A DNA stretch of 26,523 bases, from assembly GCA_027039745.1 (NCBI GenBank), contig JALUMP010000114.1, forward strand, positions 1 to 26,523, in the 5' to 3' direction. Below the pieces are notes generated by a model, which ran no database searches, was not told the DNA's origin, and saw nothing but the letters and a program-made list of their open reading frames with translations. Source of the DNA: Candidatus Parcubacteria bacterium (GTDB taxonomy: Bacteria > Patescibacteriota > Minisyncoccia > Phycocordibacterales > GCA-2747955). Both the position numbers and the translations under genes were made by a program. Positions within the stretch are counted from its first letter, which is position 1. Every line of letters starts with the position of its first letter. This document shows positions 2 through 26,245 of the stretch, one piece after another.

Positions 2-484
2 TTCTATAAAATAAGATTCTTTTTTTTGATAAGTTTCAATGATATCTGTTAATATTTTTAAAATATGATTTTTTCCCTTTTTTGGTAAAAATATTTTCCT
101 TTCTTTTAAACCACTAAAAATTGCACCAACTCTATCACCATTTTTAATAGCAGAAAAAGCCAATAAAGCAAACGCTTCCAACATATTTTCAAATTTTCCA
201 ACCTTTTGAGATTGAAAATAAATTGCTGGTGAAAAATCAAAAACAAAAAATAAAGTATTATCTCGACTTTCCTGATATTTTTTCACAAAGACCTTCCCTT
301 GTTTTGCTGTTGTTTTTCAATCAATATCACGAATATCATCATTCAAATCATAAGGTCTAATATCAGCAAACTCAATTCCCCTTCCTTGAAAAACTGAACG
401 ATAATTTCCAACAAAGAGAGAGTTGATTTTATTCTGACTAGAATATTCTATTTTTTTTACCTTTTTTAAAATTTTTTTTAACAT
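2..484 (-). CDS. DUF58 family protein (MoxR-associated), 3' partial, table 4
   Basis: ATG at 484; MLKKILKKVKKIEYSSQNKINSLFVGNYRSVFQGRGIEFADIRPYDLNDDIRDID[TGA 317-319]KTTAKQGKVFVKKYQESRD matches the DUF58 G.EF...R.Y...D..R.IDW motif; open to window edge; directly downstream of moxR. Absent from the ORF track. Confidence 0.92.
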
Positions 485-488
485 AATT

Positions 489-1478
489 TTATGGTGTTTG
501 GATTGTATTTAAAATTTCATCAATAATTTTATCTGAATTTATATCATCAGCCTCAGCTTCAAAAGATAAAATTATTCTATGCCTTAAAATATCATGGGTT
601 ACTGCCTTCACATCATCAGCATTAACATAATCCCTTCCTTCAAATAAAGCATTAATTTTAGCAGCTTTTAGCAAATTAATACTTCCACGAGGAGAAGCTC
701 CAAATAAAATTCAATTCTTCAAATTTTCTAAATGATATTTTTCTGGACTTCTGCTTGCATCTACAATTTTTGTAATATATTTAATAATTACGTCATCTAC
801 ATAGACAGACTTTACTAATTTTTGATTTTTTAAAATTTCCTTTTCATTAAAAACTTTTTCAATTTTATCAAAATCTTGTTTTTCAATTTTATCTAAAACC
901 ATTTTTTCTTCTTCTAAATTAGGGTAGGTCATATCAACCTTAAAGAAAAATCTATCAATCTGTGCTTCTGGAAGTGGGTATGTTCCTTCTTGCTCAATAG
1001 GATTTTGAGTAGCCAAAGTCAAAAAGACTTTTGAAAGTTTATAAGTTTTTTGACCAATTGTGACCTGTCTTTCTTGCATTGCTTCAAGCAAAGCTGATTG
1101 GACCTTTGCAGGGGCACGATTAATTTCATCGGCTAAAAGTAAATTTGTAAAAACAGGACCCTTCTTAACCGAAAAAGATTTATCTTCCATATTGAAAATC
1201 TCGTTTCCAATAATATCTGATGGAAGCAGATCTGGGGTAAATTGAATTCTTTTAAAATCTAAATCAGCAACTTTAGAAAGTGCTAAAACAGAAGTAGTCT
1301 TGGCAATTCCTGGCACCCCTTCTAATAAAATGTTTCCTCTTACAAATAAAGCTTGCAAAAGTCTATTTACTAAATTTTCCTGACCTACTAAAATTTTTGA
1401 AATTTCTTTTTTAGCTTTTTGAATTTTTTCTTGAAATTTTTTAATTTCTTCACTATTTATTTTTTGTTTTTCTGTCAT
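489..1478 (-). CDS. moxR: MoxR family AAA+ ATPase, 329 aa (table 4)
   Basis: ORFs 711..1478 and 489..674 are in one frame joined by TGA 711-713 (LKN-W-ILFGASPRGS); Walker A EGVPGIAKT, RIQFTPDLLPSDIIG, LLADEINRAPAKVQSALLEAMQERQVT, ATQNPIEQEGTYPLPEAQIDRF; ends TAA. Confidence 0.96.
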
Positions 1479-1586
1479 AATTTTTCTATCTTACTTTTTC
1501 TATGACAAAATTATATAAAACAAAAATGAAGAAAAAATGAAGATATTGCTATCAACCTTCATTTCAGATATTTAAATGAGAAAAAA

Positions 1587-3812
1587 TTATAAATCACACC
1601 CTAACATACTATTAGCTTGTTTTTTTGTATACTTAAATCAATTCCCTGTTGGGCTAACAAGACCTAAAGGTTTCAGAATTTTATCCGAATATTTAGACTG
1701 AAAGTCTTTTACAGCTTGCTCTGTTATACTACCAAAATACCCAGTATCTTTTTGATATTTAAAATAACCTTTTTTTCTTAAGAAATTCTGAACCTTTTTA
1801 ACTTCTCCTCCCCTATCACCTCTTTTTAATTTCTTTCTAAAAATCTCACAACTTTTTCCACTCTGTGTTTCTTGCTTGTCTTTTAATAATTTTAAAAGAT
1901 GATCGATTTGTTTTTGAAGTTCTTTTTTAACATCATCACTATTTTTATCTGAGGTTTTATATTTACACAAAGATTGTCTATGAAGCCCTTTCTTTTTATA
2001 ATTCAAAGCTTTAGGGTCTTTACACACTTTCTTTTTTTTAAAACTCTTTGGTCTTGATCTTCCTGTTTGTCCAGAAGATACTATTACATGTCTTATCACT
2101 TCTACAGCAGAATTACCAGCAGAATCATCAACATTGTATGTTACAGGATAGTCTCCAGCGACATTAGTATTAACAGGATTATTAACAATAATATTGGCAG
2201 TAATATCACCATCAACATCATCGGTTGCTGTTGCTCCTGCATCAAGATAAACCTCTCCAATATTTAAATTAACCACTGGACTTCCAAGAAGAGAAATAAC
2301 TGGAATATTTTCATCTAAATCAATTATAGAAATTATAAAAGATTTTTGATAAGTTCCACCGTGTCCATCATCTGTTTGTATTCTAATAGAGTATGTATTG
2401 TTTCCTGCTGTATCTCCAAGATCTGTTGGGTTTTCAAAATCTGGAGTAAAAGCTAATTGTAGGTTTGAACCAGATATTTGGAATTTTGCATTATCTTCAT
2501 CACCTACTCCAGCTACAAGCGTGTAAGTATGTGAATCTCCTACATCAATATCGGTAGTGGTAATTGTTGCTATACTTGTTCCAGAAATTGTTCCTTCGTT
2601 TACATTATCAGTATTTCCACCATCTATCTGAATATTTGTTGGACTAGAATTTGTATCATAATTGATATTGATATTGTCTATTTCAACTGCTTGCATCCCG
2701 TTTGATGTTAGAAAAGATTTAACATAAATTTTATTAGCTGTGGTTGGGAATGTTGAGATGTTTGTGTTTATACCAGCTTCAGTGTTGTAGTCTGTAGCTC
2801 CTGCATTTACTCAAGCTGCTCCATCTCAATATTTTCAAGTTATGCCGTCTTCTGACAATTGATATGCTAAACTACCGCCCACTACTCCCCCTGTAACCAC
2901 AAAATTATTAAAAATAGAAATAGTCCCAGTATCTCCGCCATTTTTTGTAATAGAAAATACACCACTTTCGTATTGAGTAACTTCTTTTCCATTTCCTGCA
3001 TTATATAATTCAGAAATTTCAGCTGGCAAAAGTGCTCTATTTCAAACAGCAGTTTCATCAATTTCTCCTGAAAATTTACCATTATATGTCGCATGGACTC
3101 CAGACCCAGACACATCATTATATCTTCCGATTAAAAATACATTATTTTTATCAAAATCTATCGCACTATATGCCGAAATATCAATACTGCTTTTAAAAAC
3201 ACCATCAATATACAGGCTCATATCTCCATCACGATCAAAGACAGCTATCGCCTGGTGTCATTGGTCATCCAAATATGGCCCAGAAGGCACTCCCGTTATC
3301 TTATTTGCAGCACCTCCATCAAACATTATACGAAGCTGACCAGATGAAAAATATAAAGCATATCGTTCGTCTTGCCCAGAATAAAAAGATTTTGCTACTA
3401 AAATTCCTCCAGCGTCTGTTGTTTTAAATCAAGAACTTATGGTCATATCACCTAACCCCATATTCATCATAGAGCCACTACCTTGAAGATAATCATTTTC
3501 TACAAAAGTTAAAGCGTTGTTTAACTTACCAACACTTCCATAACTTGCATTATGGTTTACTAGGTTATTTCCATTACCAGAACTATCTACGATTTGTCCA
3601 GCTATATCGTCCATTTTTCAATATCCCTGTAAACCACTTCAAAGAGAAGATTGTTTTATTTTTGCTAAACCACCAACAACTTCGATTTCACTATCCATTG
3701 TGTAATTAGCAGCTGTAGAAAATGGAGTTGTAAAAACGGCAGCAAAAATAGTTTGCCAAAAGAAAAATAACAAAAATAATAAACTCCAAATAAAAATATT
3801 AATCTTTTTCAT
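1587..3812 (-). CDS. Secreted/surface protein, 741 aa: signal peptide, LamG-like jellyroll, cadherin-like domain, Ig-like (DUF5011-type) domain, Cys motif, C-terminal peptidoglycan-binding domain
   Basis: Single frame from ATG 3812 to TAA 1587-1589 with 9 in-frame TGA (3639, 3618, 3429, 3258, 3042, 2835, 2826, 2811, 1638) giving GLQGYWKMD, TISSWFKT, DQWHQAIAV, IDETAVWNRAL, TWKYWDGAAW; cadherin-like DFENPTD..YSIRIQTDD; Ig-like YLDAGATATDDVDGDIT; CKDPKALNY..CKY; LKRGDRGGEVKKVQNFL..TGYFGSITEQAVKDFQ. Confidence 0.9.
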
Positions 3813-3887
3813 AATCAATGATATTAAGTATTATACCTGAAAAAAAAATACATCAAAATACCCAAAAAAAACAAAAATAATATAATC

Positions 3888-4109: not shown

Positions 4110-4115
4110 AAAATA

Positions 4116-5198: not shown

Positions 5199-5235
5199 TT
5201 GAATTTTTATTTAGTTTTGATATTATAACAGAACA

Positions 5236-5498: not shown

Positions 5499-5517
5499 TA
5501 TCTTATTTTTTTAAATA

Positions 5518-6228
5518 CTAGTCTCTCCCCCCACCAAACAAAGACAGTAAAGATTGAAAAATAGCTACAAAATTAATATACATATGCAAAGCTCCTAAAA
5601 TTGTGTATCTTCCATAATTTTTTTCATCATTTTTTACTCCATGATAAATGGCCTTGTAAGCCTGATTATCATAAATCGTAAGAGCAGAAAAAACAATCAA
5701 AACTACAACAGAAATAACCATATTAAACAAAGATGAATGAAAAATTAACATATTTAAAAATGACATCACAATAATAGCTATTGTAGTTGGGGCTAATACT
5801 GCACCCCAAGATGACAAGTCCATTTTTGTTCTATAACCCATTACGGCTAAAACAATATACAAAACAATAGCTCCTGCAAAAGTTTGAATAATAGTGTCTA
5901 TGCTATAAATTGCAAAAATCACAGACATGGTAACACCATTTACAGCTGCATAAGCCAGAAATAGAGCTGTAGCTATCTGTGGAGTAACTTTGTTGATAAT
6001 AATCTGGATACCAAAAACCAACAAAAGCTCAATCCCTATTAATCCATAAAAAAATATTTGTGCAGAAAAGATAAAATCAAAAGCATGAGTGTAAATAGTA
6101 ATACCTGCAAACAAAGCGGACATAAAAACACCAATTGCCATTCACTTATAAATACCTGCAAAAAAACTAGACAAACCTAAATCTATTTGTTCCGCTCTAC
6201 TTTCTAAAGAAACATTTTCATTATCCAT
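5518..6228 (-). CDS. BAX inhibitor-1/YccA (YbhL-like) membrane protein, 236 aa (table 4)
   Basis: ATG 6228; FFAGIYK[TGA 6142-6144]MAIG corresponds to family F...VY.WM..GL; several TM helices; C-terminal GALHMYINFVAIFQSLL; TAG stop. Confidence 0.92.
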
Positions 6229-6273: not shown

Positions 6274-6618
6274 CTAACTTTCTAATGTTTGTGGTATAAA
6301 AGTATTTTTTATCTCTTCAAACTGCATTTCATAACTGGCTGTGTTTTCACCTATCTCTTTCAGCTTTTGTATTTCAAATTCTAAATCTTTAATGGCAAAT
6401 CCAACCATATAATTTTTACTTTTATCATTTATATAAGATTGAGTCTCAGCTATTTCTTTCTCTACGTTTTTTATTCTAATTTTTCTCTCAGTATTTAAAA
6501 AGAAATTATGAACAATATTTGAACTTTTAAAAATAAACTGCAAACTTTTCAATCAGCCATGTTTCATTTTCTCTTGATCTACAACTCTTCCATTGTATTT
6601 TTTTTGTTCTATACTCAT
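6274..6618 (-). CDS. Hypothetical protein, 114 aa (table 4)
   Basis: ORF 6274..6552 extends through TGA 6553-6555 to ATG 6618 (MSIEQKKYNGRVVDQEKMKHGWLKSLQF); TGG-TATCAT box 7 nt upstream; no recognisable domain. Confidence 0.6.
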
Positions 6619-6759
6619 AACAAATATGATACCATTTATATTAAATAACGTCAATATCAACTTTCCACTTATTCATAAGTTAATATCAATTTAAAAATCA
6701 TTAAAGCTATGGTAAAATAACCACCTTATATAAAATATAACCCGATCATCTAAGAGTGG

Positions 6760-6837: not shown

Positions 6838-6908
6838 TACCATGTCGTCTAATGGTAGGACAACGGGTTCTGGTCCCGTTAATCTAGGTTCGAGTCCTAG
6901 CGTGGTAG
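6838..6908 (+). tRNA. trnQ: tRNA-Gln (anticodon CTG), CCA not encoded
   Basis: Acceptor TACCATG/CGTGGTA, D arm GTCTAATGGTAGGAC, anticodon stem ACGGG/CCCGT with loop TT-CTG-GT (6870-6872), T arm CTAGG-TTCGAGT-CCTAG, discriminator G. Confidence 0.95.
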
Positions 6909-6933
6909 CTTTGAAAAGAAAACGAAAAAATAG

Positions 6934-7111: not shown

Positions 7112-7861
7112 ATGAATCAAAATAAAATTGTATGCGTAATGACTTTCAAGCAAGGTAGTCCAAACAACTCCATTGAAAAAACTAGAAGTGAAGTATTTTT
7201 TAATACAGCGCAAAAAATATTAGATAAGGGGCATCTATTAGTTGTTGTCTATACTGAAACCCAAGAGGCTGTGTTGAAAATGCTCAAACAACTTGGTGTA
7301 ATTATGATTGATCAACAAGCAACAGGGATTGGCAATATTCGCAGAGAAGCACTATCAAAAGCTTCTGAATATTTTCCAGAAGCTCAATACTTTTGCTGAC
7401 TTGAACCAGAAAAACCAGATTTAGTACAATTTATTGAACCCATGGCTTATAAAATGCAAAAAGAACAATCTGTTTTTGGTATTTTTAACAGAACTGATAT
7501 GGCAAGCTATCCACCAGAACAAGCATACTATTATCTTTTTTGTCGTGCTGTGGCAAGCCAACTGATTGGCTTTGATATTGACTATGCTTTTGGACCCATG
7601 ATGATGACAACTAAAACAATTTCATATTTCTTAAAATATTCAGGTGATAACTACGGTGATAAATGAGACTCAATTTTGGTTCCTCGGTTACATATAATAA
7701 AAGACAAATTGAAAATTTCAATATTACCAATAAATTTCAAAAATGATAAAAGAATGACTGATATAGAATCTGGTAATACCACCATGATCCTCAAAAGGTT
7801 AAAACAATTTAACAACGTTATTCCTTCTCTTGTTAACGAATGGAAACTTCTTAATAAATAA
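7112..7861 (+). CDS. Hypothetical protein, 249 aa, probable GT-A (glycosyltransferase family 2-like) fold (table 4)
   Basis: Three track ORFs (7112..7399, 7442..7666, 7676..7861) lie in one frame joined by TGA 7397-7399 (YFC-W-LEPEKPDL) and 7664-7666 (YGDK-W-DSILVP); beta/alpha pattern with QQATGIGNIRREAL resembling GT2 N-termini; TAA stop. Fold call is inference. Confidence 0.72.
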
Positions 7862-8772: not shown

Positions 8773-9498
8773 TTATTCTCCTCCGTTTAATTCGTCTTGT
8801 AATACTTTTAACTCATCTCATTTTTCGTCACGAGCAAGTCTAGCTTGTTTTGACCAAGATTTTGGGTCATATCTTTTAAGCCCAGCCTCTTCTAAAATGT
8901 CTCTCAAGTCTCCAACTTTTGAACCAGCTAAATCAACGTAAGTTGAAATATCTTTAGCATTCAACGCTTCTACTGTTTTTGGGCCAATACCCTCTATTTT
9001 TGTTAAATCATCTGCTTCAGAGCTTTTTGGAGCCCCTTCAGCCTCTTTTTCAACGACCTCTTCTTTTACTTCTTCTTTCTTAACTTCCTTTTTAACTTCC
9101 TCTTTTTTTTCTTCCTCAACCTCTTCTTCAGATTCCTCTTCAGATTCTACTTGAAATTTATTAGTCTCTGAATCATCTGCCACAGTTTTGACAATAAGAT
9201 ATCTAAAAATATCTTTTTTAACATTATCAACTGCTTTTTTAAGTGCATCAATATCTGAAGGAGCAGCTTCAAACTTTATTCAAGTAAAAAAAGCTTTATC
9301 AAATCTTTCATTAATTGATGCTATTTTGGTAATTATTTGATAAGCAAGATCAACATCTACAATCTCACCTTCGGAAATTACAGAAGCGTTTATCTTTGTT
9401 AAAAAACCTTTTAGTTTTTCAACTACTTTTTCAACCTTCTGTTGTGACAAATCAGGGTTTATCAACACCCCAATTTCGTAAATATTATTATTATTCAT
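8773..9498 (-). CDS. rpsF: 30S ribosomal protein bS6 fused to Glu/Lys-rich linker and helix-hairpin-helix (HHH_5/DUF4332-like) domain, 241 aa (table 4)
   Basis: ATG 9498; YEIGVLINPDL..LAYQI..FDKAFFT[TGA 9280-9282]IKFEA..IFRYLIVKT (S6) continues without TAA/TAG into ESEEESEEEVEEEKKEEV.. and DDLTKIEGIGPKTVEAL..DPKSWSKQARLARDEK[TGA 8818-8820]DELKVLQDELNGGE-TAA 8773-8775. Confidence 0.9.
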
Positions 9499-9578
9499 AA
9501 CGTTCGCTAGTATAGCATATTTCAACCTAAAGATAAATTACATAAAGGGCTCAAAGTATGTGCTAAAATAGCTTTTAT

Positions 9579-10763
9579 ATGAAAATTATATCAATAGAAA
9601 CATCCTGTGACGAAACAGCTATTTCGATACTTGATTTCCAAAAAAACAACAAATTTAAAATATTATCAGACTTGGTAGTATCACAAATAGATATTCACAA
9701 AAAATATGGTGGTGTTTACCCAAAACTAGCAAAAAGAGAGCATACTTCCAACCTCTTCCCTGTCTTTTTTCAATCTTTGAAAAAAGCAAAACTTTTAGAA
9801 AAAAGGAAGAAAGAAAGGGTGCTCGATAAACAAATATTGAGAAAACTAAACAAAATTTTAGACAGAGATGAGCACAATAAAGAGCTACTCATCGACTTTT
9901 TGCAAAATTATAAAACACCAAAACTTAATGCCATATCTGCAACATACGGACCAGGCTTAGAAATGGCATTATGAACAGGCTTTAATTTTGCTCGTGCTTT
10001 ATCTTTAATCTTTAATACCACTCTCGTTCCAGTCAACCATATGGAAGGTCATGTTTATGCATCACTTATAAAAAAAATATCTTCCAATAAATACAAAATT
10101 CAAAAAATATCTTACCCATCACTAGTAGTATTGATTTCTGGTGGGCATACCCAACTGCAACTGATTAAAAAACAACACTCCTACAAGCTTTTAGGCTCTA
10201 CATTAGATGATGCAGTAGGAGAAGCATATGACAAAACAGCAAGACTTCTCGGTATTGCCTACCCAGGAGGACCAGAGATCTCAAAACTAGCTGACTCTTT
10301 TGCAACATCCCCGGGATGTTGCAAAACTCGTGGATGTTGCAAAGTTACATTACCAAGACCTATGCTACATACTCAAAATTTTGACTTTTCTTTTTCTGGT
10401 CTTAAAACCGCAGTTTTATATATTGTTCAAAGTAAAAAAAGACTAACTAAAAAATTTAAACAAGAACTTTCTGCAGAATTTGAAAATGCAGTTTCTGATG
10501 TATTGATTGGTAAAACAAAAAAAGCTCTAATAAAATATAAAGCAAAAAATATTATCATAGGAGGAGGAGTAGCAGCCAACAACAGACTAAGAAAAGACTT
10601 TAGAGAACTCGCTAAAACTTTTAAAATAAAATCATACATACCACACAAAAAATACACAGGAGATAATGCTCTCATGATAGGTATTGCTGGATATTTAAGA
10701 TACAAAAACAAAAACTACCCAAAAAGGATAGCGCGAGTAAACGGCAATTTAAAATTAAAATAA
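9579..10763 (+). CDS. tsaD: tRNA N6-threonylcarbamoyladenosine synthase TsaD, 394 aa (table 4)
   Basis: SIETSCDETA, HKKYGGVYPKLAKREH, TYGPGLEMAL[TGA 9972-9974]TGFNFARAL, VNHMEGH, ISGGHTQL, DDAVGEAYDK, FSFSGLKTA, GGGVAAN, YTGDNALMI; has a ~45-aa insertion before the GPGL motif. Confidence 0.97.
10298..10343 (+). repeat. In-frame palindrome plus extra copy inside tsaD
   Basis: TTTTGCAACATCCC-C-GGGATGTTGCAAAA (10298-10326, 14-bp arms) and a further GGATGTTGCAAA (10332-10343); encodes FATSPGCCKTRGCCK. Confidence 0.85.
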
Positions 10764-11210
10764 TTCTTTTTTGAGAACCTGCGTTTTATGTTCAACAAAT
10801 CCAAGTTTTTTATATCAATCTTGAGCAATAACCTTACTTGAAGTAAGCTCTATTCTTTGTAAATCTTTTTCTTTTGAAATAGCTAAAATATTTTCCCAAA
10901 GCATCGTGCCAATACCATTTCTACGAAATTTTTTATCTACAACAACATCTTGAATATTACCAAACCGACCAAGAGGCTGAATATGCGGGATTAACGTAGC
11001 CAAAGCCACTAATGTTTTTGAATTATCTGTCATATCTCTTGCAGAAAATACATAGTTTCTTTTCATCACTTCTTGCCAGTGAGAAAAATCGTTAATTAAC
11101 TTTTTGTTTTTAACAAAAGCATTTAAACTCAACTGAAACAACAAATCATTGATTTGCGGCATATCTTTTTTCTCTATATCGTTTACAAAAACTTTAATTT
11201 CTTTTTCCAT
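10755..11210 (-). CDS. GNAT family N-acetyltransferase, 151 aa (table 4)
   Basis: GNIQDVVVDKKFRRNGIGTML (acetyl-CoA motif A), RIELTSS, AQD[TGA 10815-10817]YKKLGF (A..FY.KLGF motif) to TAA 10755-10757; start at ATG 11210 preferred over 11225, which would overlap dus. Confidence 0.9.
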
Positions 11211-11217
11211 ACAATAA

Positions 11218-12246
11218 TTATACATTGTTTTCTAAAAAATCTTGGCAAATTTTTTTTACCCCAGAGATAGTTTTTTCTTCCATAAGTTTTGTTCTTAAAG
11301 TTTTGGCTCCACCAAAACCATTAATATAAATCTTAAAAAACTTTTTCATTAACGCAAAAGTTTTTACTCATCTATCTTTTTTATAAAATTCTTCTTCAAA
11401 CAAATCCAAGTGGCTAAACATTACTTCTATTTTTTTTTCAACCAAAAAACTATCAAAATTGCCTCCTTCAAACAACGCTGGATTATAAAAAATGCCTCTT
11501 CCTACCATATAACCATCAAAACCAGAGCTTTCTAATTTTTCTTCACCCTCTTTTTTACTTTCTATGTCTCCATTGCCTATCAATACTGTTTCTGGAGAAA
11601 TCTTTTCTCTCATTTTATTTATCTGTTCTGCAAGCTCTCAATGGGCAGGCACTTTTGACATCTCTTTTCTTGTGCGTAAATGCACAATTAATGCTTGTGG
11701 TTTTAACTTGAGTAAAAATTTTATTCAGTCTAAGTCTATTTGGTTAAAACCAATTCTTGTTTTTATAGACATAGGGATATTGCCAGCGGCTTTTTTAGAA
11801 GCTAAAAATATCTTTTTAAATCTTTCTGGATCATTTATCAAAGCAGAACCAGAGCCCTGTTTTATTACAGCTTTGTCTGGGCAACCAGTATTTATATCTA
11901 TGCCTGCTGGATCAAACTTTTTAATAATTTTAATAGCTTGAAAAAATTTATCTGGATCTGAACCAAAAAGCTGAAATACTAAATTTTTGTTTTTTTTCTC
12001 GTGCTTTGTTTTTTTAAGCATTAAATAAAGCCTCTCTCTGCCACCTTCTGAACAAAGCCCATCTACAGAAACAAACTCTGTAAAAAAAATATCAGGTGCT
12101 CCTAAATCTGCCACTATTTGCCGAAAAGGTTTGTCTGTTACATCAAGCATAGGGGCTAAAATAGAAATTTTTCCAGCTTTTTCTAACTTTAATTTTTGCC
12201 AAATATTTTTATTAGATTTTTTAAAAATTTTTCCTCAATTGAACAT
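11218..12246 (-). CDS. dus: tRNA-dihydrouridine synthase, about 342 aa (table 4)
   Basis: LAPMLDVTD, FFTEFVS, QLFGSDP, GIDINTGCP (catalytic Cys), SIKTRIG, LD[TGA 11725]IKFLL, HLRTRKEMSKVPAH[TGA 11638]E, IGNGDI, DGYMVGRG, DR[TGA 11368]VKTFALMKKFFK, GAKTLR; TAA 11218-11220. Start at 12246 (with TGA at codon 4) is less certain. Confidence 0.93.
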
Positions 12247-12470: not shown

Positions 12471-14444
12471 ATGGCAAAAATTACTCTAAACAAACAACAA
12501 TCAAAAGCTGCCAACACATTGTCAGGGCCTGTTTTAATACTTGCAGGAGCAGGAGCTGGAAAGACCATGACTTTAACAGCAAGAATCATAAAACTTATTT
12601 CTTCTGGAATTATGCCTCAAAATATTTTAGCGATTACTTTCACCAACAAAGCGGCTGGAGAAATGAGAGAAAGAATCACAAAAGCTATATCTAAAAACTC
12701 TAAAATAAATTTCTCTACTTTAGAGCTGGGTATGACACCTTTTGTCTCCACTTTTCACGCCTTAGGAGTTTTTATTATTAGAGAAAACCATCAGAAACTT
12801 GGTATATCAAAATATTTTTCTATCTACGATAGAGCAGATTCTAGAAAAGCTTTAAAAGAAGCCCTAAAGAAACTATCTCTTGACCCAAAAGAATGAGACT
12901 TAAGGATGCTTATTTCCGTAATTTCTAAAAACAAAGGAAATTTTTTAGATCATAAAAATTTTACAAAAATAGCTAAAAATAACTTTCACACAAAAACAAT
13001 TTCAGATATCTGAAATAAATATGAAGAAATAAAAAAAGAAGATAAAGCTCTTGATTTTGACGACCTCCTTTTAAAAACAGCACAATTATTAGATAATGAT
13101 AAAAGTATAAGAGAACATTACCAAAAAAAATGAAGCCATATCCATATAGACGAATACCAAGATACCAACAAAGTCCAAAATAAAATCGCAGAACTTTTAA
13201 CCAACCCAGAAACAAAAAATATTTTTGCTGTTGGTGATGATGACCAATCTGTATATGCATGAAGAGGATCTGACATAAAAAATATTTTAGATTTTGAAAA
13301 AAAACATAATGCCCATAAAATATTTATGGAGCAAAACTATCGTTCTTCTGGAAATATTATTGAAGCATCTAACGCTGTTATAGCGAAAAACAAAGACCGA
13401 TATCCTAAAAAACTTTTTACAGAAAGCCCCGCTGGAGAAGAGATAATCTTATACTCTTCTTTTTCAGAAAAAGAAGAAGCCCGTGCAATTGCTGCTAAAA
13501 TAAAAGAGAGATTAAAATATAATAAAAAAATAAATGAAAATGATATAGCAATTTTATATAGAGCTAATTTTCAATCACGAGTTTTAGAAGAAGCTATGCT
13601 TACAGAAAATATACCTTACCAAGTTTTAGGTACAAAATTTTTTGATAGAGCTGAAGTAAAAGATATTATGTCTTATATTAAAGCTTCTCAAAACCCAACC
13701 TCACTCGTTGACTTAAAAAGAATTATCAACTCTCCAAAAAGAGGTATTGGCAAAGTCTCGGTTGTAAAAATATTTTCTGGAGATACGTCAACACTTTCTG
13801 CAAAAGCTCAAACTTCTTACAAAGATTTTTTAAAAATCTTAGAAAAAATTAAACAATATTCTAAAAACCATACCCCATCAGAACTCATAAAATTTACTAT
13901 AAAAGAATCTGGTTTTGAAAAAATGTTTAAAAACCAAAAAACAGACGAGGCTAATGAAAGACTTGCCAACACTTACGAGCTTGCTTTGTTTGCTGAAAAA
14001 TACGATATTTTAGAAAAAGAAGAAGCTTTACTGAAATTTTTTGAGGATGTAGCACTAATCTCTGACCAAGATAGCAAAAAAGATAGCAAAAAAAAGCCCT
14101 CTGTAAAGCTAATGACTATCCACGCTTCAAAAGGACTTGAATTTGATACTGTATTTTTAACAGGGGCTGAAGAGCATTTTTTCTCTCCTTTAGAAACCGA
14201 AAGTTCTGAAAAAGAAGCTGAAAAAAAAGAAGAAGAAAGAAGACTTTTTTATGTAGCCATGACAAGAGCTAAAAATCTACTATTTATCTCATGGTCTGGT
14301 ATGCGAACAATCTACGGAAAAACAGAAACCAATGACTTAGTTTCTTTCGTACTTGATATTCCACATAACTTAATAAAAGAAGACTCAACCTTTCAAAATT
14401 TTAAAGACGACAATGACGATGAAATAGAGTATTTAGAATGGTAA
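12471..14444 (+). CDS. pcrA: ATP-dependent DNA helicase PcrA/UvrD, 657 aa (table 4)
   Basis: Walker [36 protein letters not shown][TGA 13131][22 protein letters not shown][TGA 13260][46 protein letters not shown]; other TGA at 12894 and 13011; ends TGG-TAA. Confidence 0.97.
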
Positions 14445-14451: not shown

Positions 14452-15063
14452 TTACCTAGTCTTTATATCTTCTTCCCCAAACTCAGAAACTCAAAATGCT
14501 TGACCATCAACCTCGACTACCTTTCCGTGAAAACCTTGCTCTGTTGAAACAATCGTATCTATACCAGCTTCCGAAAAATAAAATGTATCAGCCACTTCAT
14601 TTTTTTCTTTAGAATATCTTTCAATTTTTACAACTACTTTTCCTTCTTGATTTTTTTCAAATCCAACCACTTCATTATAAAAATTATCTGTAATATTATA
14701 TCTATAACCAACAACCTTGACTGTTTTTAAACTTTCTTGATTAGCAGTAACCAATTTATCACCTTGTTGATATATACCATTTTCTACTAAAACTAGAGGT
14801 TTTTCTTGTTGTTTTGTATTATCTGTATTTAAAACTAATCCTCCTATAATTATAGCTGGAGCGAGAGAGACAAAAGGAGTAAATGTCATCAAATACTTTT
14901 TAACTTTTTTATTTTTGTCATTTTTTTCTGCTTTTTTAAAAGAATCAAAAAAAACTTTAAGTTTATTTACAACTTCTTCACCATTTTCCCGCCCTTTATC
15001 AAAACTTTTTTTAACATCATCCACTGTTAATACTTCTACTTTTGGTTGCCAATTTTCTTTCAT
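14452..15063 (-). CDS. Hypothetical membrane-anchored protein, about 203 aa (table 4)
   Basis: ATG 15063 (MKENWQPKVEVL), one TM segment (FTPFVSLAPAIIIGGLVL), beta-rich C-terminus; TGA 14491-14493 read through to TAA 14452-14454. Confidence 0.65.
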
Positions 15064-15170
15064 AATTAAGTTATCATACACAATATTTATATATTTGTCA
15101 ATATATACAATATTAAAAAACAAGTGATAATACAACTTGTTTTTTTATGTTATATTTTTTAATAGTCAAT

Positions 15171-15923
15171 CTAATTTTCAATTTTATAAGTGATTGAAAT
15201 ATTTTTTGTAATTTTTTGCTCTCCAGGATTAATCTCTGGCAGCTCAACACTCTTTCCTAAAGCTACTGGCTCAGCAAAATCCATTTTTTCATATTGAGGA
15301 TAATAATTTCTGCCACTACCTGATTCTGAAAAACCAACTATTTTTATTAAATCAACACCTAATTCTGAAGCTAACTTTTTAGCTTTACTTTTTGCGTCAT
15401 CAATAGCGATTTCTCTTAAAGAATCTTGAACTTCATCCAAACGATCAATAAACATATTTGGACCATTTAAATCATCTACTTTTTGTTCAACAATTTTTGC
15501 TAAAACTTTTGGTGTATTTTCTAAATCTCTTACAACAACAGAAACATTTTGTCGCACTCTGTAACCAATAAAATCTCTTTTTCCTTCGTTTCAATTATAT
15601 TCTGGAGTCAAAGAATAAGTAGTTGTTTTTATATCTTTCTTATCTATATCTAAATCTTTTAATACTTCTACTACTTTTTTTGTTTTTTTGTTTACATAGT
15701 TTGCAATATTTTTTTGATCGTTGCCTCTCTTTGTTATATAGAATGATATTCTAGCAGTATCTGGAGCAACTTGTTTTTCAGCTTTTCCAGAAACTGTAAT
15801 AGTATTATTGTTTTGTTCTGAAACATCTAAATCCATTTTTAATGTATGAGTTTGAAATAACCCAAAACCTAAAATAACAACAGCGGCAGTTAATAAAATA
15901 TTTGTAATTGTTTTATTTTTCAT
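15171..15923 (-). CDS. SIMPL domain (DUF541/YggE-like) protein, 250 aa (table 4)
   Basis: N-terminal TM, TITVSGKAEKQVAPDTARISF, DIKTTTYSLTPEYN[TGA 15591-15593]NEGKRDFIGYRVRQNVSV, AIDDAKSKAKKLASELGV, INPGEQKITKNISITY; TAG stop. Confidence 0.93.
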
Positions 15924-16634: not shown

Positions 16635-18182
16635 TTAATATTTTTTATCTTGTTTATGTTTTTCTCAATATGCCTTAATTTTTCTTCTAGCTGTATTAGT
16701 TTTTACAAAATCAAGTCATTTTAAATTTGGACTTTCATTTTTTCTTGATTCTAACTCTACTACATCACCATTTCTAAGCTCTGTATCTAATGATTTAAAA
16801 ATCCCATTAATTTTAGCTCCTACAATGGTATCCCCTAAACTACTGTGCACATAATATGCAAAATCCACAGGAGTAGAACCGACAGGTAAATCAATAACAT
16901 CACCAATTGGTGTAAAAGCAAAAATTCTATCTGAAAAAAAATCATCTTTTAGTCTTGTTTCAAAATCAAAAGCTTCGGGGTTATCGGAATGCTCTGCAAG
17001 CTCTTGTATTCATTTGATCTTATTCTTTTTATCATCTTTTCCGACTTCCTGCTTCTTAGAAAAAACTCTAAAAACTTTTGAGACTCAATCAGAATCTTGA
17101 GAATTATATTTTAATCCCATTTGTTTAGCTTTATAACCTAAATGCGAAGCTGCCCCATACTCAGCTTCAGCATGCATTTTGTCAGTTCTTATTTGCACCT
17201 CAACAACACCACCATGTCCTGTAAAAATTGTAGTATGAATTGACTGATAACCATTTGGTTTTGGTAAAGCAATATAGTCCTTAATTCTTCCCGCCATTGG
17301 TTTAAAGTTTTTATGAATCACCCCCAAAACTTTATAACAATCACCAACTGTTGGTACAATTATTCTCAACGCAATAATATCATATACATTTTCAGCATGT
17401 CACTTTTTTTTAATTAATTTTTTATATAGTGATACTATGGCCTTTGTTCTACTTGTTAATTTAAATTTTTTTATTTTAGCGGCAACCAACTTTTTTGTAA
17501 TTGATCGACTGACCTGCTCTAAATTCCTTTTATTTTCCTTTGATCTTTCTTTCAAAATATTTCTTATTTTTCTATATTTTTCTGGAAAAACATATTTAAA
17601 AGATAAATCACCTAAAGCCTTTGATAAAGTAGTAATCCCTAACCTATAAGCAAGTTGTGTATAAATTTCTAATGATTCTGTAGCAATTCTTATTTGTTTC
17701 TCACGTGGTAAAAAATCTAATGTTGTTAAATTGTGCAATCTATCTGCAAATTTAATAATAAGAACTCTAATATCTTGAGATGTCGCAACAAAAAGTTTTC
17801 TCAACGATTCGTTATGTCTACGCATTCCACGATATTTAATGTGCCCTAATTTTGTAACTCCTTCCACTAGAAATAATATTTCTACTCCAAAAACTTTTTC
17901 AATCTCTTCTCTCGTTGCTGCTCCATCTTCTATAGAATCATGCAAAAGACCAGCAGAAATCACAATCCCATCCATTCCTAAATTAGATAAGTTTTGTGCT
18001 GTTGCAACTAAATGATAAAAATAAGGGTCTCCAGACTGTCTTACTTGCCCTTCATGTTTACTTTTAGCAAATAAGTAAGCTTTTTTTATAATTTCACGAT
18101 CTTTTTTGGTTAATTCGAGATTTAAATTAAAAATACTTTCTAATGAAAAATCTTTCTTTTTTTTATCGTTAGACGCTGTCAT
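16635..18182 (-). CDS. rel: RelA/SpoT homolog (HD hydrolase + synthetase + TGS), 515 aa (table 4)
   Basis: HEGQVRQSGDPYFYH, GLLHDSIED, IKFADRLHN, YDIIALRII, RIKDYIALPKPNGYQSIHT, EVQIRT, AEYGAASH, TGS FAFTPIGDVIDLPVGSTPVDFAY; TGA at 17400, 17085, 17010 (K-W-IQEL), 16716 (PNLK-W-LDFVKT), 16665; TAA 16635-16637. Confidence 0.95.
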
Positions 18183-18255: not shown

Positions 18256-19551
18256 TTATTTTTTAAATAATAAATCAACTTCAGAAAATGCATTTTGAAC
18301 AGATTTATTTGGAGTATATTTTCCACCATAAATAGACTCAATCATAAATTTAAAAATATCATAAGTTTTTTCAAAATCTGGATCAATAAATGATTGAGCA
18401 TATATTGCTTCTTTATAGAAAATATCCATATAAATATCACTTGCTGGTTGTGACAATAAATCTCTTCTCACAGGGGGGAGATTAAGTTTTTTAGAAATTA
18501 TTTTTTGTGCTTCTTTCCCTGCAAACTCTGTTGCAACAATCATAGCCCCATTTTTATTTTTAGCAACTTTCGGAATAGCCAAAGCATACACTTTTGCAAA
18601 AACAGATTTTCTTTCTGCCCCAGACACAGCAGGAATTTCTGCTATATCAAAAATTAAATTAGGATTTTTCTTTCTGATGTCTGCGATTTCAGAAGCAAAA
18701 CCAAAATACGTTGCTAATTTCCCACTTAAGAAAAATTGTTTAGAATTTGGTAGTGATTTATTTCAAGAATAAGATGGACTTGTTTGATTTGAAAATTCCA
18801 TAAAAAATCGAATAGGTGCAGCTTGGTCACTATTTTGGTTTATATTTTTAATTGTTCTATATTCTCCTTTTCTTCTTTCAATAATAGGATTTCCTAATTG
18901 CAAAAATAAATTAATCAATATTTCTTTAAAATTTTCTACATTTGAAACTACCCCAAAAGAAATAGCAGAACGCTTGATATTTTCTTTATTATCGACAATT
19001 GTCAATTTTTTTGGTAAGTCAATAAATTCTTCTCATAATTTTGGTGGAGTTGCTATAGAATTAGAAGCAAATATACTTTTATTATAATACATAATAAGCG
19101 GGTCTACTGAAAAAGGAAAAGCATATATACCATCTGTATCTGTAAAAGTCGCAAAAACATCTACAAAATTAGATAAATATTCTCTCACTGGATAAACTTT
19201 ATTTGGAATTTTATATATTTTATTTAAATTAAAATAAAAATCTTCATTTGAAATCAACAACAAATCTGGAGATTTTCCTGATGCGAGTTCTTCTAATAAC
19301 TCAGTTTGATATGTATTTTTATCTTTTTGAACATAAGAAACCCCCTGTAAACCGTTATTTTGCTTCTTAACATCTATTAAAATTGACTCCATTATATTTT
19401 TATCAAGAGTCCCTCAAATAACTACTTTTCCAACAACATCTTTTGATTTTTTGCCACCCTTATATGTTGCAAACAACAAAAAACCAACAGCCATCAAACC
19501 AAGAAATATTGCTAACATTATCATTCCAAAAGCAGACGTTTTATTATTCAT
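18256..19551 (-). CDS. Membrane-anchored extracellular solute-binding protein (sugar ABC SBP family 1-like), 431 aa (table 4)
   Basis: ATG 19551, TM anchor, VVI[TGA 19414]GTL, ELASGKSPDL, YAFPFSVDPLIMYYNKSIF, PPKL[TGA 19033]EEF, YS[TGA 18763]NKSLP, FLSGKLATYFGFASE; three track ORFs in one frame; TAA stop. Confidence 0.9.
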
Positions 19552-20045: not shown

Positions 20046-20987
20046 ATGACAGAAAAAAAACATATTTTTGATTTAATAATCATAGGGGGAGGTCCTGCAG
20101 GAGTTACAGCAGGGGTTTATGCTGCAAGAAAAAAATTAAATACTTTGCTTATTACCAAAGATTTTGGTGGTCAAAGTATAGTTTCAGAATATATAGAAAA
20201 CTGAATAGGAGAAATAAAAATTTCAGGAAAAAAATTACAACAAAAATTAGAAACTCATATCAAACATTATCAATCTAAAGATTTCATTATCAAAGAATTT
20301 CAATATATAACAAACATATCTGAAATTAAAGATAATATTTTTACAATAACAACAAACACTAACACTCAATATTACACAAAATCAATTCTTATCACAACAG
20401 GAGCCAAACGCAGAAAAATAACTGTCCCAGGAGCTGATAAATTTGAACACAAAGGGCTTACTTACTGTGCCTCATGTGATGGGCCATTGTTTACAGATAA
20501 AGACGTTGTTGTAATCGGAGGTGGTAATTCTGGTTTTGAATCTGCTTCGCAATTAGCTGCTTATGCAAAATCTGTAACCATTTTACAACGCGATGAAAAA
20601 TTTAACGCAGAAGAAACAATGATTGATAATGTGCTTAATAAAAAAAATACTAAAGGAATATTAAATGCAGATATCTCGGGAATCTTTGGTAAAAAATTTG
20701 TTGAGGGAATCAAATATATTGACTTAAAAACACAAAAAGAACATGCCCTGGATGTAAAAGGTGTTTTTATAGAAATTGGGGCAATCCCAGCCACTGATTT
20801 TATATCTGAAAATCTTGTAAAAAAAGATACCTTTGGTCAAATAAAAATCAATCACAAAACAGGACAAACTTCAAAAAAAGGAATCTGAGCTGCTGGAGAC
20901 TGCACAGATTCTCTATACAAACAGAACTCAATCGCTATGGGTGACGCAACTAAGGCTATAGAAGATTTATATCATTATTTAAAATAA
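20046..20987 (+). CDS. trxB: Thioredoxin-disulfide reductase (TrxB/AhpF C-terminal-like), 313 aa (table 4)
   Basis: IIIGGGPAG (FAD), IEN[TGA 20202]IG, ITTGAKRR, YCASCDG (redox CxxC), VVIGGGNSG (NADPH), KGI[TGA 20886]AAGDCTD; TAA 20985-20987. Confidence 0.93.
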
Positions 20988-21001
20988 CTTTTTCCTAAAA
21001 T

Positions 21002-21029
21002 AAAAAACGACAAAATATTGTTGTTTTTT
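21002..21029. terminator. Probable bidirectional intrinsic terminator
   Basis: AAAAAACGACAA-AATA-TTGTTGTTTTTT (one G.T pair) between convergent trxB and the second pilus ATPase. Confidence 0.65.
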
Positions 21030-22717: not shown

Positions 22718-22736
22718 ATATTTTTATATAAAAATT

Positions 22737-24458
22737 TTATAATTTTAAAACTTCATCAAAAGTAGTTACTCCAGCAAGAGCTTTTAAAATTCCATCTTCT
22801 TTAAAAGTAATAAAACCATTTTTTCTAGCTATTGAATAAATAGACAAAGATGATGGATCAGTTAAAATTAATCTTCGAATTTTATCAGTCATTTCTAATA
22901 CCTCAAAAACAGCAATTCGCCCCTTAAGACCATTATCTCCCTCTTTTGTAACATTCTCTGTGGTATACATTTTTTTACCAGAAAATCTTTTTTGAATATC
23001 CGTTGATAAATCTTTTATACGATCCTGAACAAATAACTTAACTTCATCAGTCATTTCTCTTTCTTGTTTTGCGTCTGGTCTTATTTTTCTAATTAACCTT
23101 TGTCCAATAGACACTATCAATGTCGGACCTATCAGATAAGGTTCTACCCCCATATCAACAAGACGCTGAGGAACATCATACGATGTATTTGTATGAATAG
23201 TAGATAATACTAAATGTCCAGTTAAAGAAGCCTCTATAGCTAACTTAGCTGTTTCTTCATCACGAATCTCCCCAACCATAATAACATCAGGGTCCTGCCT
23301 TAAAATAGACCTTAATCCTGTAGAAAAAGTATATCCAATATCTGGTCTAACTTGAGATTGTGATACCCCAGGAACATTTAACTCAATCGGGTTTTCTAAT
23401 GAAACAACATTCTTTTCTACTTTATCAATTTCATTCAATAATGAATATAAAGTATTTGTTTTACCAGAACCAGTTGGACCACAAACTAATAAAATACCGT
23501 ATGTATGCGCAATTGCTTTATTTATTTTTTCTAAATTTTCTTCTGTAAAACCAAGATCTGTAATAGCTAATGCCCCACGATCTTGTTCTAGAAGCCTCAT
23601 CACAACCTTCTCACCATAAAAAGTTGGAAATGTAGAAACACGAAAGTCTATCTTTCTACCCAAAATTCTTTGAGAAAACCTACCATCTTGCGGTTTTCTT
23701 CTTTCGTCAATTTTAATAAATGCCATAATCTTTACACGAGCAACTACAGCTCTATGAATATTTTTTGGGAGAGATAAAGATTTTTTTAAAACACCATCTA
23801 TACGATATCTTACACTGATATTTTTATCTGAAACCTCTATATGAATATCAGAAGCATCTTGAGACGCAGCTCCTTTTATAATATTTGTAACAATTTTAGC
23901 AATTGGAGCATCTTCTCTAATAACATCAGCTTCATTTATATCTTTATCTTCGTTTTTTTGTAACTTCTGCATTTCACGCTCCTGAACCGAAGAATATTCT
24001 CCAAGAGCCTTAGAAACTTCTCCTTTTACTCCAGAATAACTAGATAAAATATAATCATAATGTGATTGAGAAATTAAAAATATATTATACGGCATTCCAG
24101 CTTTACTAGAAATAAATTGCAAAATTGTATTTGCTGTCATATCTCCAGGATCTAACATCCCAACATTTAAATATCCATCATCAATACCTAACGGAACAAT
24201 TTTATATCTTTTTACAGAATCTTCTGGAATATAATTTAAAACACTTTCGGGAACAGTTTTATTTTTATCAAATTCAGCAAAAGGAATATCTGAAAAAAAA
24301 TCTTTCTTTATTTTTACAATTTTTTCTTCTGGTATTCCAATACCTATTAAAGCCTGATCTAATGTTTTAGAAGTGGACTCCATTTCTTTTTTTACAGAAA
24401 AAGCCTCCTCTGGACTAATAATTTTATTCTCTATAAATTTATCTATTAATGATGACAT
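22737..24458 (-). CDS. pilB: Type IV pilus assembly ATPase (PilB/GspE family), copy 1, 573 aa, lacking tetracysteine motif
   Basis: ASDIHIE, RKPQDGRF, GPTGSGKTNTL, VSLENPIE, LRQDPDVIMVGEIRD, GHLVLSTIHTN; RLIRKIRPDAK...GLKGRIAVFE with no Cys pairs. Confidence 0.92.
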   Translation of the reverse strand: MSSLIDKFIENKIISPEEAFSVKKEMESTSKTLDQALIGIGIPEEKIVKIKKDFFSDIPFAEFDKNKTVPESVLNYIPEDSVKRYKIVPLGIDDGYLNVGMLDPGDMTANTILQFISSKAGMPYNIFLISQSHYDYILSSYSGVKGEVSKALGEYSSVQEREMQKLQKNEDKDINEADVIREDAPIAKIVTNIIKGAASQDASDIHIEVSDKNISVRYRIDGVLKKSLSLPKNIHRAVVARVKIMAFIKIDERRKPQDGRFSQRILGRKIDFRVSTFPTFYGEKVVMRLLEQDRGALAITDLGFTEENLEKINKAIAHTYGILLVCGPTGSGKTNTLYSLLNEIDKVEKNVVSLENPIELNVPGVSQSQVRPDIGYTFSTGLRSILRQDPDVIMVGEIRDEETAKLAIEASLTGHLVLSTIHTNTSYDVPQRLVDMGVEPYLIGPTLIVSIGQRLIRKIRPDAKQEREMTDEVKLFVQDRIKDLSTDIQKRFSGKKMYTTENVTKEGDNGLKGRIAVFEVLEMTDKIRRLILTDPSSLSIYSIARKNGFITFKEDGILKALAGVTTFDEVLKL

Positions 24459-24600
24459 AAAAAAATATTATACAAAAAATTATATAACATTTAAGATGAT
24501 ATTCCTAATTTTTTATAATTAAATACCTACTGACAACAAAAAATAAATACTATTTTCAAAAAAACAAAAGATACACTATAACACCTTACAACCATCTGTC

Positions 24601-25059
24601 CTATCCGGCTATGGTTTCTGGTATTGTATTTTCTTGCTTGTTTGAATCTACATTATTCTCTGGTATAGCTGTAATAGGTTCTCTATTATTAGAATCTAAA
24701 ACATTAGTAATAAAAGTGCCTTCAGTTACAGCAAATGGATTTGGTTTACCAACATCTTTTAATGGAATATCTTTTTCTGAAAAATCAATAAGATCTTGAA
24801 AAGATACTAAATTAGAACTACCTGTATTTTGTAAATTTTCAGTGAAAAAATCTGGATCAATGTTAATTTTTTCTAGCTCATTCAACGTTTTAATAATTTG
24901 CATTGCTTGCTCATCATAATTTTCATCAGTAACATTTTCTGTTATAGCCTCTTTTGGTTTATCCTGCATATAATTATAAGCAAAAGTAATAATAAACACA
25001 GCAACTATTATTATAATAATTTTATTTACATTTTTTTTGACTAATTTTAAAAAATTCAT
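24601..25059 (-). CDS. Hypothetical single-TM protein in pilus operon (PilP-position), 152 aa
   Basis: N-terminal TM, LNELEKINIDPDFF..FQDLIDFS..VGKPNPF; sits after pilO; TAG stop. Confidence 0.7.
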   Translation of the reverse strand: MNFLKLVKKNVNKIIIIIVAVFIITFAYNYMQDKPKEAITENVTDENYDEQAMQIIKTLNELEKINIDPDFFTENLQNTGSSNLVSFQDLIDFSEKDIPLKDVGKPNPFAVTEGTFITNVLDSNNREPITAIPENNVDSNKQENTIPETIAG

Positions 25060-25060
25060 A

Positions 25061-25645
25061 TTAATTATTTATTCAATACGTTCGAATTGATAATGTAAAC
25101 ATATAATTATCTCCCGTACTTTCTTCTCCTTGATTTTCTTGTAATCTTAAAGATAAATCAACAATGTCCACTAATCTTAATGATTTATGTAAATCATCTA
25201 AAAACTTTTGAAAATTTTGATAATTTGACACAAATGAAAAACTCAATACAACTGATGAATAATTAGTATCCTCTTTTATTTTTATTTTACCAACATCAAC
25301 TCCTTTTTTAACACTTTTAGAAGCATCACGAATCAATGTAATATCACTCATATTTCTAATATTGTTTTTCTTAGCAATCCTATCTATATCAACGATTAAT
25401 TCAATATTGTTAACATGGTCAGGAATAAATTTATTAATTTTTGTCAAATCAGATGATGAAATAGCTGTATATTGATCATTCAATTTTTGTTTTTTTTCAT
25501 TAATTTCATCTGCTTTATCAAATTTCTCTTGAAAAGCTACCTTTGTTTTTTGCAATTCTTTTATACCCTGATAATGTGGATCAATGTAAGTCAAAAAAGT
25601 CCCTACAGAAATTGCTATTAGAATAATTGGAAAAACTAAATTCAT
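25061..25645 (-). CDS. pilO: PilO-like type IV pilus assembly protein, 194 aa (table 4)
   Basis: N-terminal TM, coiled coil, KFIPDHVNNIELIVDIDRIA, YQNFQKFLDDLHKSLRLVDIVDLS, SIRTY[TGA 25073-25075]INN-TAA. Confidence 0.8.
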
Positions 25646-25651
25646 AATATT

Positions 25652-26245
25652 TTAATTATTATTACCACTACTACTAAACTCCCTAATACTTAAATCTTTT
25701 TTATCTACTTCAAATTCTAGATCAAAAGAAACCAACCCATCTTGTGTTCTAGAAATATTTGACATCACTAAATTTTTTATATTCTGATTTTTTCCATATG
25801 ATTTTGATTGTAAATACAAATCACTTAATGCTGGGGCTAACCCTTGTGCTGTTATTGCTAATACAGAATCACGTTCTTCTAAATTTAGTTCTGTCAAAAC
25901 TATATTTGTCTGTGTCTCTGCCTCTAAAAATCTAAAAATAGGTAATACATTATAATGATTATTTAATAATATATTTCCAGCCTGTATCCTTTTGTTCAAA
26001 TCAGAAAATTTTTTGATACTATCAATACTATAATCGTCTCTATTTTCTGTTAATTGTTTTGTAAATTCTTCATTTGTTTTTTCTATATCCATCTTTCACA
26101 AAGTAACTCCTACTGCCCCTATGATTGTTGACAAAAAAATCACTAAAGAAATTAAAAAAAATACATTTATCTTAAAACCTTTTTTCTTTTTCTTTTTACT
26201 AAGCGCCTGCTTAGGAATAAATGATGTGTTAATTATTTCTACCAT
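25652..26245 (-). CDS. PilN-like type IV pilus assembly protein, 197 aa (table 4)
   Basis: ATG 26245; NTSFIPKQAL motif, TM helix, VTL[TGA 26096-26098]KMDIEK, then ferredoxin-like core (IFRFLEAET..IVLTELNL..ITAQGLA..VSFDLEFEV); upstream of pilO. Confidence 0.75.

Follow-up and report, generated by a model that had tools for sequence, protein, structure and literature searches.

The window analyzed here, a 26,523-nt stretch that is the whole of contig JALUMP010000114.1 in the hydrothermal-vent metagenome-assembled genome (MAG) GCA_027039745.1 of the class Minisyncoccia (Parcubacteria), comes from an organism that almost certainly reads UGA as tryptophan (NCBI table 4), the best explanation of the data as a whole. 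An earlier note, made from the letters of the window, had proposed this reassignment and had cautioned that the lineage might be rare rather than wholly new. Both were right: UGA-to-Trp recoding was already published in 2026 for the genus of the window (PMC13695967) and for the family JAKLIH01 (PMC13092985). Beside the recoding itself, standard-code relatives carry an in-frame UGA at a Trp codon of prfB, the gene for release factor 2 (RF2), which suggests a read-through device.

To keep the genomes apart, the bin holding the window (90% complete, 29% G+C) is called G000. Its recoded congeners are G001 (GCA_027024305.1), G002, and G004, and its standard-code congeners are G003, the sister species, and G005 (GCA_002747955.1). 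G007 is a complete standard-code relative in the same family, while G009 and G011 belong to a neighboring genus, g2.

In-frame TGA codons and their meaning

Translated with table 4, the window holds 25 open reading frames (ORFs) with 41 in-frame TGA against 13 TGG codons, a ratio of about 3 to 1, and 18 genes carry TGA by the start choices of our analysis. The earlier tally of 43 TGA in 20 genes and roughly 12 TGG is thus borne out in pattern, not in its exact figures. All 24 gene ends inside the window are TAA or TAG (the note counted 27 such ends), and no window gene contains an in-frame TAA or TAG. Whereas table 11 splits the window into short ORFs, table 4 gives full-length genes, and the share of the window covered by ORFs of at least 100 amino acids rises from 64% to 89%, the gain in coding density that the note had proposed as a check. 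Pfam domains, including UvrD, RelA/SpoT, Dus, TsaD, Pyr_redox_2, SBP, and others, span the TGA sites end to end. The 15 positions singled out by the note (317, 3618, 3429, 3258, 3042, 6142, 9972, 11638, 13260, 16716, 19414, 19033, 20202, 20886, and 25073) each proved to be TGA in the peptide context given for it. The pattern as a whole is far beyond chance.

To establish which amino acid TGA represents, ORFs of G000 were compared, in a tally similar to that of Codetta, with G007 (622,806 bp) and with 449 kb of G005, both rebuilt from fetched stretches. Only the best-scoring ORF was kept for each place. Before this filter, 7% Cys and many Ser and Arg appeared at TGA columns, and TGA columns appeared even in G003 and G005, both of which use code 11. 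They stemmed from antisense shadow ORFs, which look conserved because the real genes on the other strand are conserved, and they vanished once the filter was applied. Among 472 genome-wide TGA columns aligned to G007, Trp accounts for 289 (61%), followed by Tyr (38), Phe (24), Leu (19), and Gly (6; 1.3%), while 150 of 230 TGG columns (65%) are Trp. Aligned TGA sites of the window itself fall opposite Trp in 20 of 24 cases for G007 and 16 of 20 for G005, never opposite Gly. Of the four TGA sites in PcrA, three correspond to Trp in 25 to 28 out of 29 relatives, and Phe or Trp occupies the fourth. In the DNA of G003, the orthologous codon is TGG at all eight window TGA sites compared. The same in-frame TGA pattern recurs in three congeners from samples other than that of the window.

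Release factors

RF2 is the only release factor that recognizes UGA. A TIGR00020 profile search of the G000 bin did not find it, the only matches being RF1, which itself has an in-frame TGA, and a small RF-1-domain protein. The RF1 of G000 scores 233 bits, compared with 277 to 343 bits for RF2-level matches in relatives. Such matches occur in 36 of 40 relatives and are missing in G001, G002, and G004, all of which have in-frame TGA as well (in PcrA, Rel, PilB, or RF1), and in the order-level relative G020. Within the genus, RF2 is therefore missing in exactly the species that have in-frame TGA (G000, G001, G002, and G004). The gene order in G003 is prfB, ribosome-recycling factor, glutaredoxin. 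At the same site on contig C116 of G000, glutaredoxin and ribosome-recycling factor are followed by a 60-nt gap where prfB would sit, and a search of this syntenic site for a prfB remnant gave nothing below E = 0.5. The loss of prfB, which the note had asked to be looked for, thus agrees with both the bin search and the empty site.

Two side observations belong here. G020 (98% complete) is the sole standard-looking relative outside the genus without an RF2-level match, and its PcrA runs to the normal end without an in-frame TGA. Separately, a palindrome, TTTGCAACATCC...GGATGTTGCAAA, fills the C116 gap at 1020-1050, where the sister species has prfB. Its 12-mer occurs in 14 copies in the bin, one of them in frame inside tsaD (window 10298-10343), and it may be a small mobile palindromic repeat.

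tRNAs for UGA and UGG

A 72-nt tRNA(UCA) is present in each of G001, G002, and G004. The nearest sequence to it in G000 is tRNA-Trp(CCA), at 84-90% identity (80-84% in a further comparison with tRNA-Trp(CCA)), so by sequence likeness the tRNA(UCA) of the congeners is classed as a tRNA-Trp paralogue, not as tRNA-Gly-like. Between the tRNA(UCA) copies there are 3 to 6 differences in 72 positions, and all three have in common four positions that no CCA copy has, whereas the tRNA-Trp(CCA) copies of G001 and G004 show 20 differences. This pattern points to one origin of the UCA tRNA gene, which would have been either ancestral alongside RF2, with later lineage sorting, or spread horizontally. Synteny around the gene is not conserved among G001, G002, and G004.

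The probable source sample gave further matches. Logan contigs of run X1, a hydrothermal vent metagenome of 2020, contain 99% of sampled window words, and the run is probably the source sample. Two of its contigs span a tRNA(UCA) (2352 nt at depth 26.9 and 811 nt at depth 12.4), with no anticodon difference listed. A tRNA-Trp(UCA), for which the note had recommended a search, is therefore found in three congeners and in these X1 contigs, but not in the G000 bin, as discussed below.

Several other tRNA features were seen along the way. With a tRNA-Trp query against the whole genome of G002, only the UCA copy was found and no CCA copy, and in G004 the CCA copy is far more diverged than the UCA copy (20-25 versus 3-5 differences). 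Constraint on the CCA gene may have relaxed once the UCA tRNA read both codons. Tandem tRNA arrays of 14, 6, and 5 genes lie at C110:240-1756, C74:2996-3639, and C101:5018-5533, with encoded CCA ends and duplicated members, in contrast to the tRNAs of the recoded contigs, which are scattered, 72 nt long, and CCA-less. A contaminant, a phage, and a mobile element are candidates for the origin of the arrays. A tRNA-like sequence at C82:70-144 has an 8-nt anticodon loop (ARAGORN anticodon cttg, Lys or Gln) and a score of 37 bits with the Rfam tRNA model. The bin also has two tRNA-Ile genes whose anticodon is UAU (C101:5460-5533 and C139:5618-5691). Such tRNAs are uncommon in bacteria, where AUA is usually read by a lysidine-modified CAU tRNA.

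Weighing the reassignment and its alternatives

Taken together, these data are best accounted for by a translation system that reads UGA as tryptophan after the loss of RF2. UGA would be decoded by a tRNA-Trp(UCA) that presumably arose via duplication of tRNA-Trp(CCA), and with RF2 gone, A+T pressure in a genome of 29% G+C would let TGG drift to TGA.

Several points weigh against this account. Neither ARAGORN nor the Rfam tRNA model finds a tRNA(UCA) in the G000 bin, where tRNA-Trp has the CCA anticodon only. One such copy, on C112, is 72 nt long with a normal 5-bp anticodon stem, and the second, CCA-ended, lies within the tRNA array on C110. The flanks of both X1 tRNA(UCA) contigs have no match in the bin, and the gene is therefore present in the sample yet not assignable to the organism of the window. 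In G001 one gene lies about 835 nt from tRNA(UCA), and it maps to G000 contig C38 some 530 nt short of the contig end, so that an assembly gap might hide the tRNA there. The absence of RF2 rests on the search of a 90%-complete bin and on one syntenic site, and the support for the reassignment as a whole is at the level of sequence. Foreign contigs slightly dilute the whole-bin statistics: some 105 to 130 kb of the bin (C130, C54, C68, C74, C101, C138, C162, C163, and about 15 smaller contigs; L185-L194) have almost no TGA as sense or stop, a G+C content of 26-27%, and a mean identity to relatives of 44%, compared with 52% for the recoded contigs. C130 carries the conjugative type IV secretion genes TraC/VirB4, VirD4, and TrbI with ATGA stop-start overlaps. 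The TGA-poor contigs are foreign standard-code DNA or a conjugative or mobile element, and the window is unaffected.

Gene ends bear on whether UGA retains a second role. Among ORFs whose alignment reaches the C terminus of the homologue, 165 of 171 have TAA or TAG as their stop and no TGA ahead of it. Four of the 171, a further point against a complete reassignment, have a TGA 1 to 3 codons past the end of homology. These four are what a dual meaning would predict, with UGA read as Trp in most places while still ending a few genes via an RF2-independent route, and one UGA = Trp codon seems to be tolerated in prfB of the code-11 sister species G003. Each of the four TGA, however, is followed by a TAA or TAG within 0 to 3 codons, some of the four may belong to the foreign contigs, and no RF2 was found, so we consider a dual meaning improbable. 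No gene needs UGA as a stop, which answers the question about stop usage that the note had raised.

Glycine is the second meaning to be considered, as UGA = Gly (table 25) is the code of Gracilibacteria and Absconditabacteria in the same phylum, and on coding density alone tables 4 and 25 are indistinguishable. The column tally excludes it, with Gly at 6 of 472 columns against 61% Trp and a profile like that of TGG codons. In addition, the tRNA(UCA) of the congeners resembles tRNA-Trp(CCA) rather than tRNA-Gly, and no tRNA-Gly(UCA) was found in the G000 bin by ARAGORN or the Rfam tRNA model. We give table 25 practically no credence. The contention of the note that UGA means Trp and not Gly thus holds on the columns, on the missing RF2, and on the tRNA-Trp-derived tRNA(UCA) of congeners. 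The UGA = Gly code of Gracilibacteria and Absconditabacteria arose independently of this reassignment.

A standard code in a decaying genome, with nonsense mutations, sequencing errors, or pseudogenes, would also leave genes fragmented under table 11. Decay on this scale would have produced 41 TGA in the window and 472 aligned columns yet no in-frame TAA or TAG, and it would have placed TGA at Trp positions of essential genes, including that for RF1, in a genome in which RF2 is not found and in three congeners sampled separately. This has a negligible probability.

Finally, the code could be real but the organism a Mollicute or an insect-type endosymbiont, to which 29% G+C, a small genome, and table 4 would all be suited, but its relatives are Patescibacteria and the window holds type IV pilus genes (PilB, PilM, PilN, and PilO) and a PG_binding_1 peptidoglycan-binding domain, so this too can be dismissed.

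Recoded and standard-code species in one genus

Among named relatives, the nearest are Zambryskibacteria, Nomurabacteria, Campbellbacteria, and Paceibacterota MAGs, and all 40 of the nearest genomes are Patescibacteria-sized (0.5-1.1 Mb). The Parcubacteria placement of the note is therefore correct, and its check for a Mollicutes origin returned Patescibacteria. The window genome belongs to the GTDB genus GCA-2747955, named after GCA_002747955.1, which we reached through a Rel homologue (PDQZ01). Contig PDQZ01000012.1 of that assembly is 100% identical to G005 over 3210 nt, G000 and G005 carry the same genus label, and a three-protein tree sets G000 inside the clade that contains G005. The genus or its family is abundant in communities of the vent shrimp Rimicaris (PMC8042907), which fits a vent source.

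The tree, built from PcrA, Rel, and PilB (1694 columns), has the topology (G004,((G000,G003) 99.9/100,((G001,G002),G005)) 100/100). Standard-code G003 and G005 are thus nested among recoded species, with G003 as the sister of G000. Forcing the four recoded species into one clade is 140 lnL units worse (AU p about 1e-55, from three proteins only), and monophyly of the recoded species is rejected.

Stop codon usage was compared as well. In G005 (449 kb sampled) there are 205 TAA, 27 TAG, and 4 TGA stops, and in G003 (28 kb sampled) 22 TAA, 3 TAG, and 1 TGA. TGA thus makes up about 2-4% of stops in the standard-code congeners, compared with about 11% (13 of 123) in G007. TGA stops are nearly extinct in these congeners, and their loss preceded or accompanied the reassignment.

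An in-frame UGA in prfB of standard-code relatives

In G003, prfB (L062:28-897, minus strand; contig C28) has one in-frame TGA, at codon 25, exactly where the N-terminal DFW motif has its invariant Trp. The reading frame does not change across it, the SPF and GGQ motifs are intact, and two assemblies of that organism both have the TGA. TGA also occupies this codon in G009 (L276), in G011 (L277), and in three unrelated metagenome contigs (L303, L306/L307, and L308), whose RF2 proteins are 68-72% identical to that of G003; across the carrier species overall, identity is 66-72%. The codon lies at position 23-25, invariably in the context GAY TTT TGA AG. It is TGG in G005, G007, G008, G010, and 12 of 12 order-level relatives. 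Gene callers start the TGA-bearing prfB downstream, giving products of 250-253 amino acids. No conserved ORF other than prfB has a TGA at a Trp column in the sampled DNA of carriers (135 kb of G003, 20 kb of G009, and others).

This order has a short RF2 (about 290 amino acids), encoded in one reading frame, and the canonical +1 frameshift cassette of prfB (CTT TGA C) was found in none of the relatives. With a UGA conserved at a Trp codon, full-length RF2 would need Trp read-through of a codon that RF2 itself terminates. An autoregulation of RF2 by same-frame UGA read-through is a design proposed decades ago. The arrangement seen here suggests that the prfB UGA is such a read-through autoregulatory device, and its conservation across species whose RF2 proteins are 66-72% identical to that of G003 speaks for a stable one. 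An A after UGA is a read-through-prone context in Escherichia coli (PMC10540940), and Atkins et al. stated in 2016 that they knew of no RF2 gene in bacteria with an early UGA in the same frame (PMC5009743). Read-through in prfB may plausibly have prepared the family for UGA = Trp, as a stepping stone.

More broadly, the family may preserve intermediate steps of the code change, namely a prfB read-through UGA, the loss of TGA stops, and one tRNA-Trp(UCA) lineage in species that do not form a clade. On this tentative interpretation, which we think somewhat more apt to fail than to hold, either the ancestor of the genus had both RF2 and tRNA(UCA), an ambiguous intermediate, or a suppressor tRNA passed horizontally between species and recoded several of them independently.

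Genes of the window

The TGA codons of the window are distributed over genes of varied function (each codon is given by its lowest window coordinate unless a range is shown). At the left end, a DUF58 gene (2..484, minus strand) runs off the contig end and has its TGA at 317-319, and it is followed by a MoxR-type AAA ATPase (489..1478, minus) with a TGA at 711-713. A LamG / Ig-like / peptidoglycan-binding surface protein (1587..3818, minus) has nine TGA, at 3639, 3618, 3429, 3258, 3042, 2835, 2826, 2811, and 1638, which went unscored, as no orthologue is present in G005 or G007. The Bax1-I family membrane protein (5518..6228, minus) has a TGA at 6142-6144 opposite Trp in both G005 and G007. Two hypothetical genes (6274-6660, minus, and 7112-7861, plus) carry TGA at 6553, 7397, and 7664, and a tRNA-Gln(CUG) gene (6838-6909) lies between them.

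A fusion of bS6 with a helix-hairpin-helix (HhH) domain (8773..9525, minus) has TGA at 9280-9282 and 8818-8820 opposite Trp (TGG) in G005 and/or G007. The fusion is also present in GCA_002747955.1 (L182:3161-3808; a 215-amino-acid product with Ribosomal_S6 and HHH_5) and is therefore a lineage trait, not an assembly artefact. TsaD (9579..10763, plus) has a TGA at 9972-9974 opposite Trp (TGG in G005). The region 10755..12246 (minus) encodes a GNAT acetyltransferase, with TGA at 10815, and Dus, with TGA at 12235, 11725, 11638, and 11368. The codons at 10815, 11725, 11638, and 11368 are TGG in G003, as are all four TGA (12894, 13011, 13131, and 13260) of the PcrA/UvrD helicase (12471..14444, plus).

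Further along, 14452..15923 (minus) holds a hypothetical gene with TGA at 14491 and a SIMPL/DUF541 gene whose TGA at 15591 falls opposite Tyr in relatives. RelA/SpoT (16635..18182, minus) has TGA at 17400, 17085, 17010, 16716, and 16665, four of them opposite Trp in G005 and G007, and the solute-binding protein (18256..19551, minus) has three, at 19414, 19033, and 18763, each opposite Trp. In thioredoxin reductase (20046..20987, plus; TGA at 20202 and 20886) and in PilO and PilN (25061..26245, minus; TGA at 25073 and 26096, respectively), all sites are opposite Trp in G007.

Implications and comparison with known code changes

Genomes of GCA-2747955 must be translated with table 4. In the public record of G001 (GCA_027024305.1), the SecA, PheS, and DnaG genes are split, and split genes in public records distort annotation, completeness estimates, and phylogeny. 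The genus and family contain both recoded and standard-code species, as well as an RF2 gene that looks dependent on read-through, and so offer natural genomes in which codon capture can be tested against an ambiguous intermediate.

The closest known case is the genus itself. The gTranslate paper (PMC13695967; PeerJ, October 2026; preprint May 2026, 10.64898/2026.05.24.727570) reports UGA-to-Trp in ten genomes of GCA-2747955 and twelve of the family JAKLIH01, with three code-11 genomes inside GCA-2747955. What it describes, including Trp columns, the absence of prfB, a tRNA-Trp(UCA) in the majority of members, and nested code-11 genomes, matches our observations with no difference in kind, except that the tRNA(UCA) gene is not in the G000 bin. 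The searchable part makes no mention of codon capture, an intermediate, or reversion. The rejected monophyly goes beyond this text, as do the near-extinct TGA stops and the prfB UGA, two subjects for which the paper was not searched.

JAKLIH01 (order UBA6257, Minisyncoccia; Nucleic Acids Research, April 2026, PMC13092985) has the same phylum, class, and reassignment, and there too RF2 was searched for and a tRNA(UCA) identified. As gTranslate lists JAKLIH01 and GCA-2747955 as two separate recoded lineages, the two would be separate events.

Gracilibacteria and Absconditabacteria (class JAEDAM01, table 25) belong to the same phylum, use UGA as sense, and have lost RF2. They differ in reading UGA as Gly via tRNA-Gly(UCA), whereas Gly occupies only 1.3% of TGA columns here. 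Table 4 is otherwise the code of Mycoplasmatales, Entomoplasmatales, and the insect endosymbionts Hodgkinia, Nasuia, Zinderia, and Stammera. These groups are alike in UGA = Trp, in the loss of RF2, in low G+C in most, and in a tRNA-Trp(UCA) that often stems from duplication or mutation of tRNA-Trp(CCA). They are of another phylum, however, and the change described here is a young one, at the level of a genus whose clade still includes standard-code species.

For the prfB codon, the counterpart is Candidatus Providencia siddallii PSAC, at an early stage of UGA-to-Trp change, in which prfB was proposed to depend on read-through and to have triggered the code change (Genome Biology and Evolution 2023, PMC10540940). 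As in our carriers, its prfB has a UGG-to-UGA change at a Trp codon with an A after the UGA. The PSAC genome, however, is about 20% recoded and its prfB was called a pseudogene, whereas the carriers here are otherwise pure code 11 in the sampled DNA.

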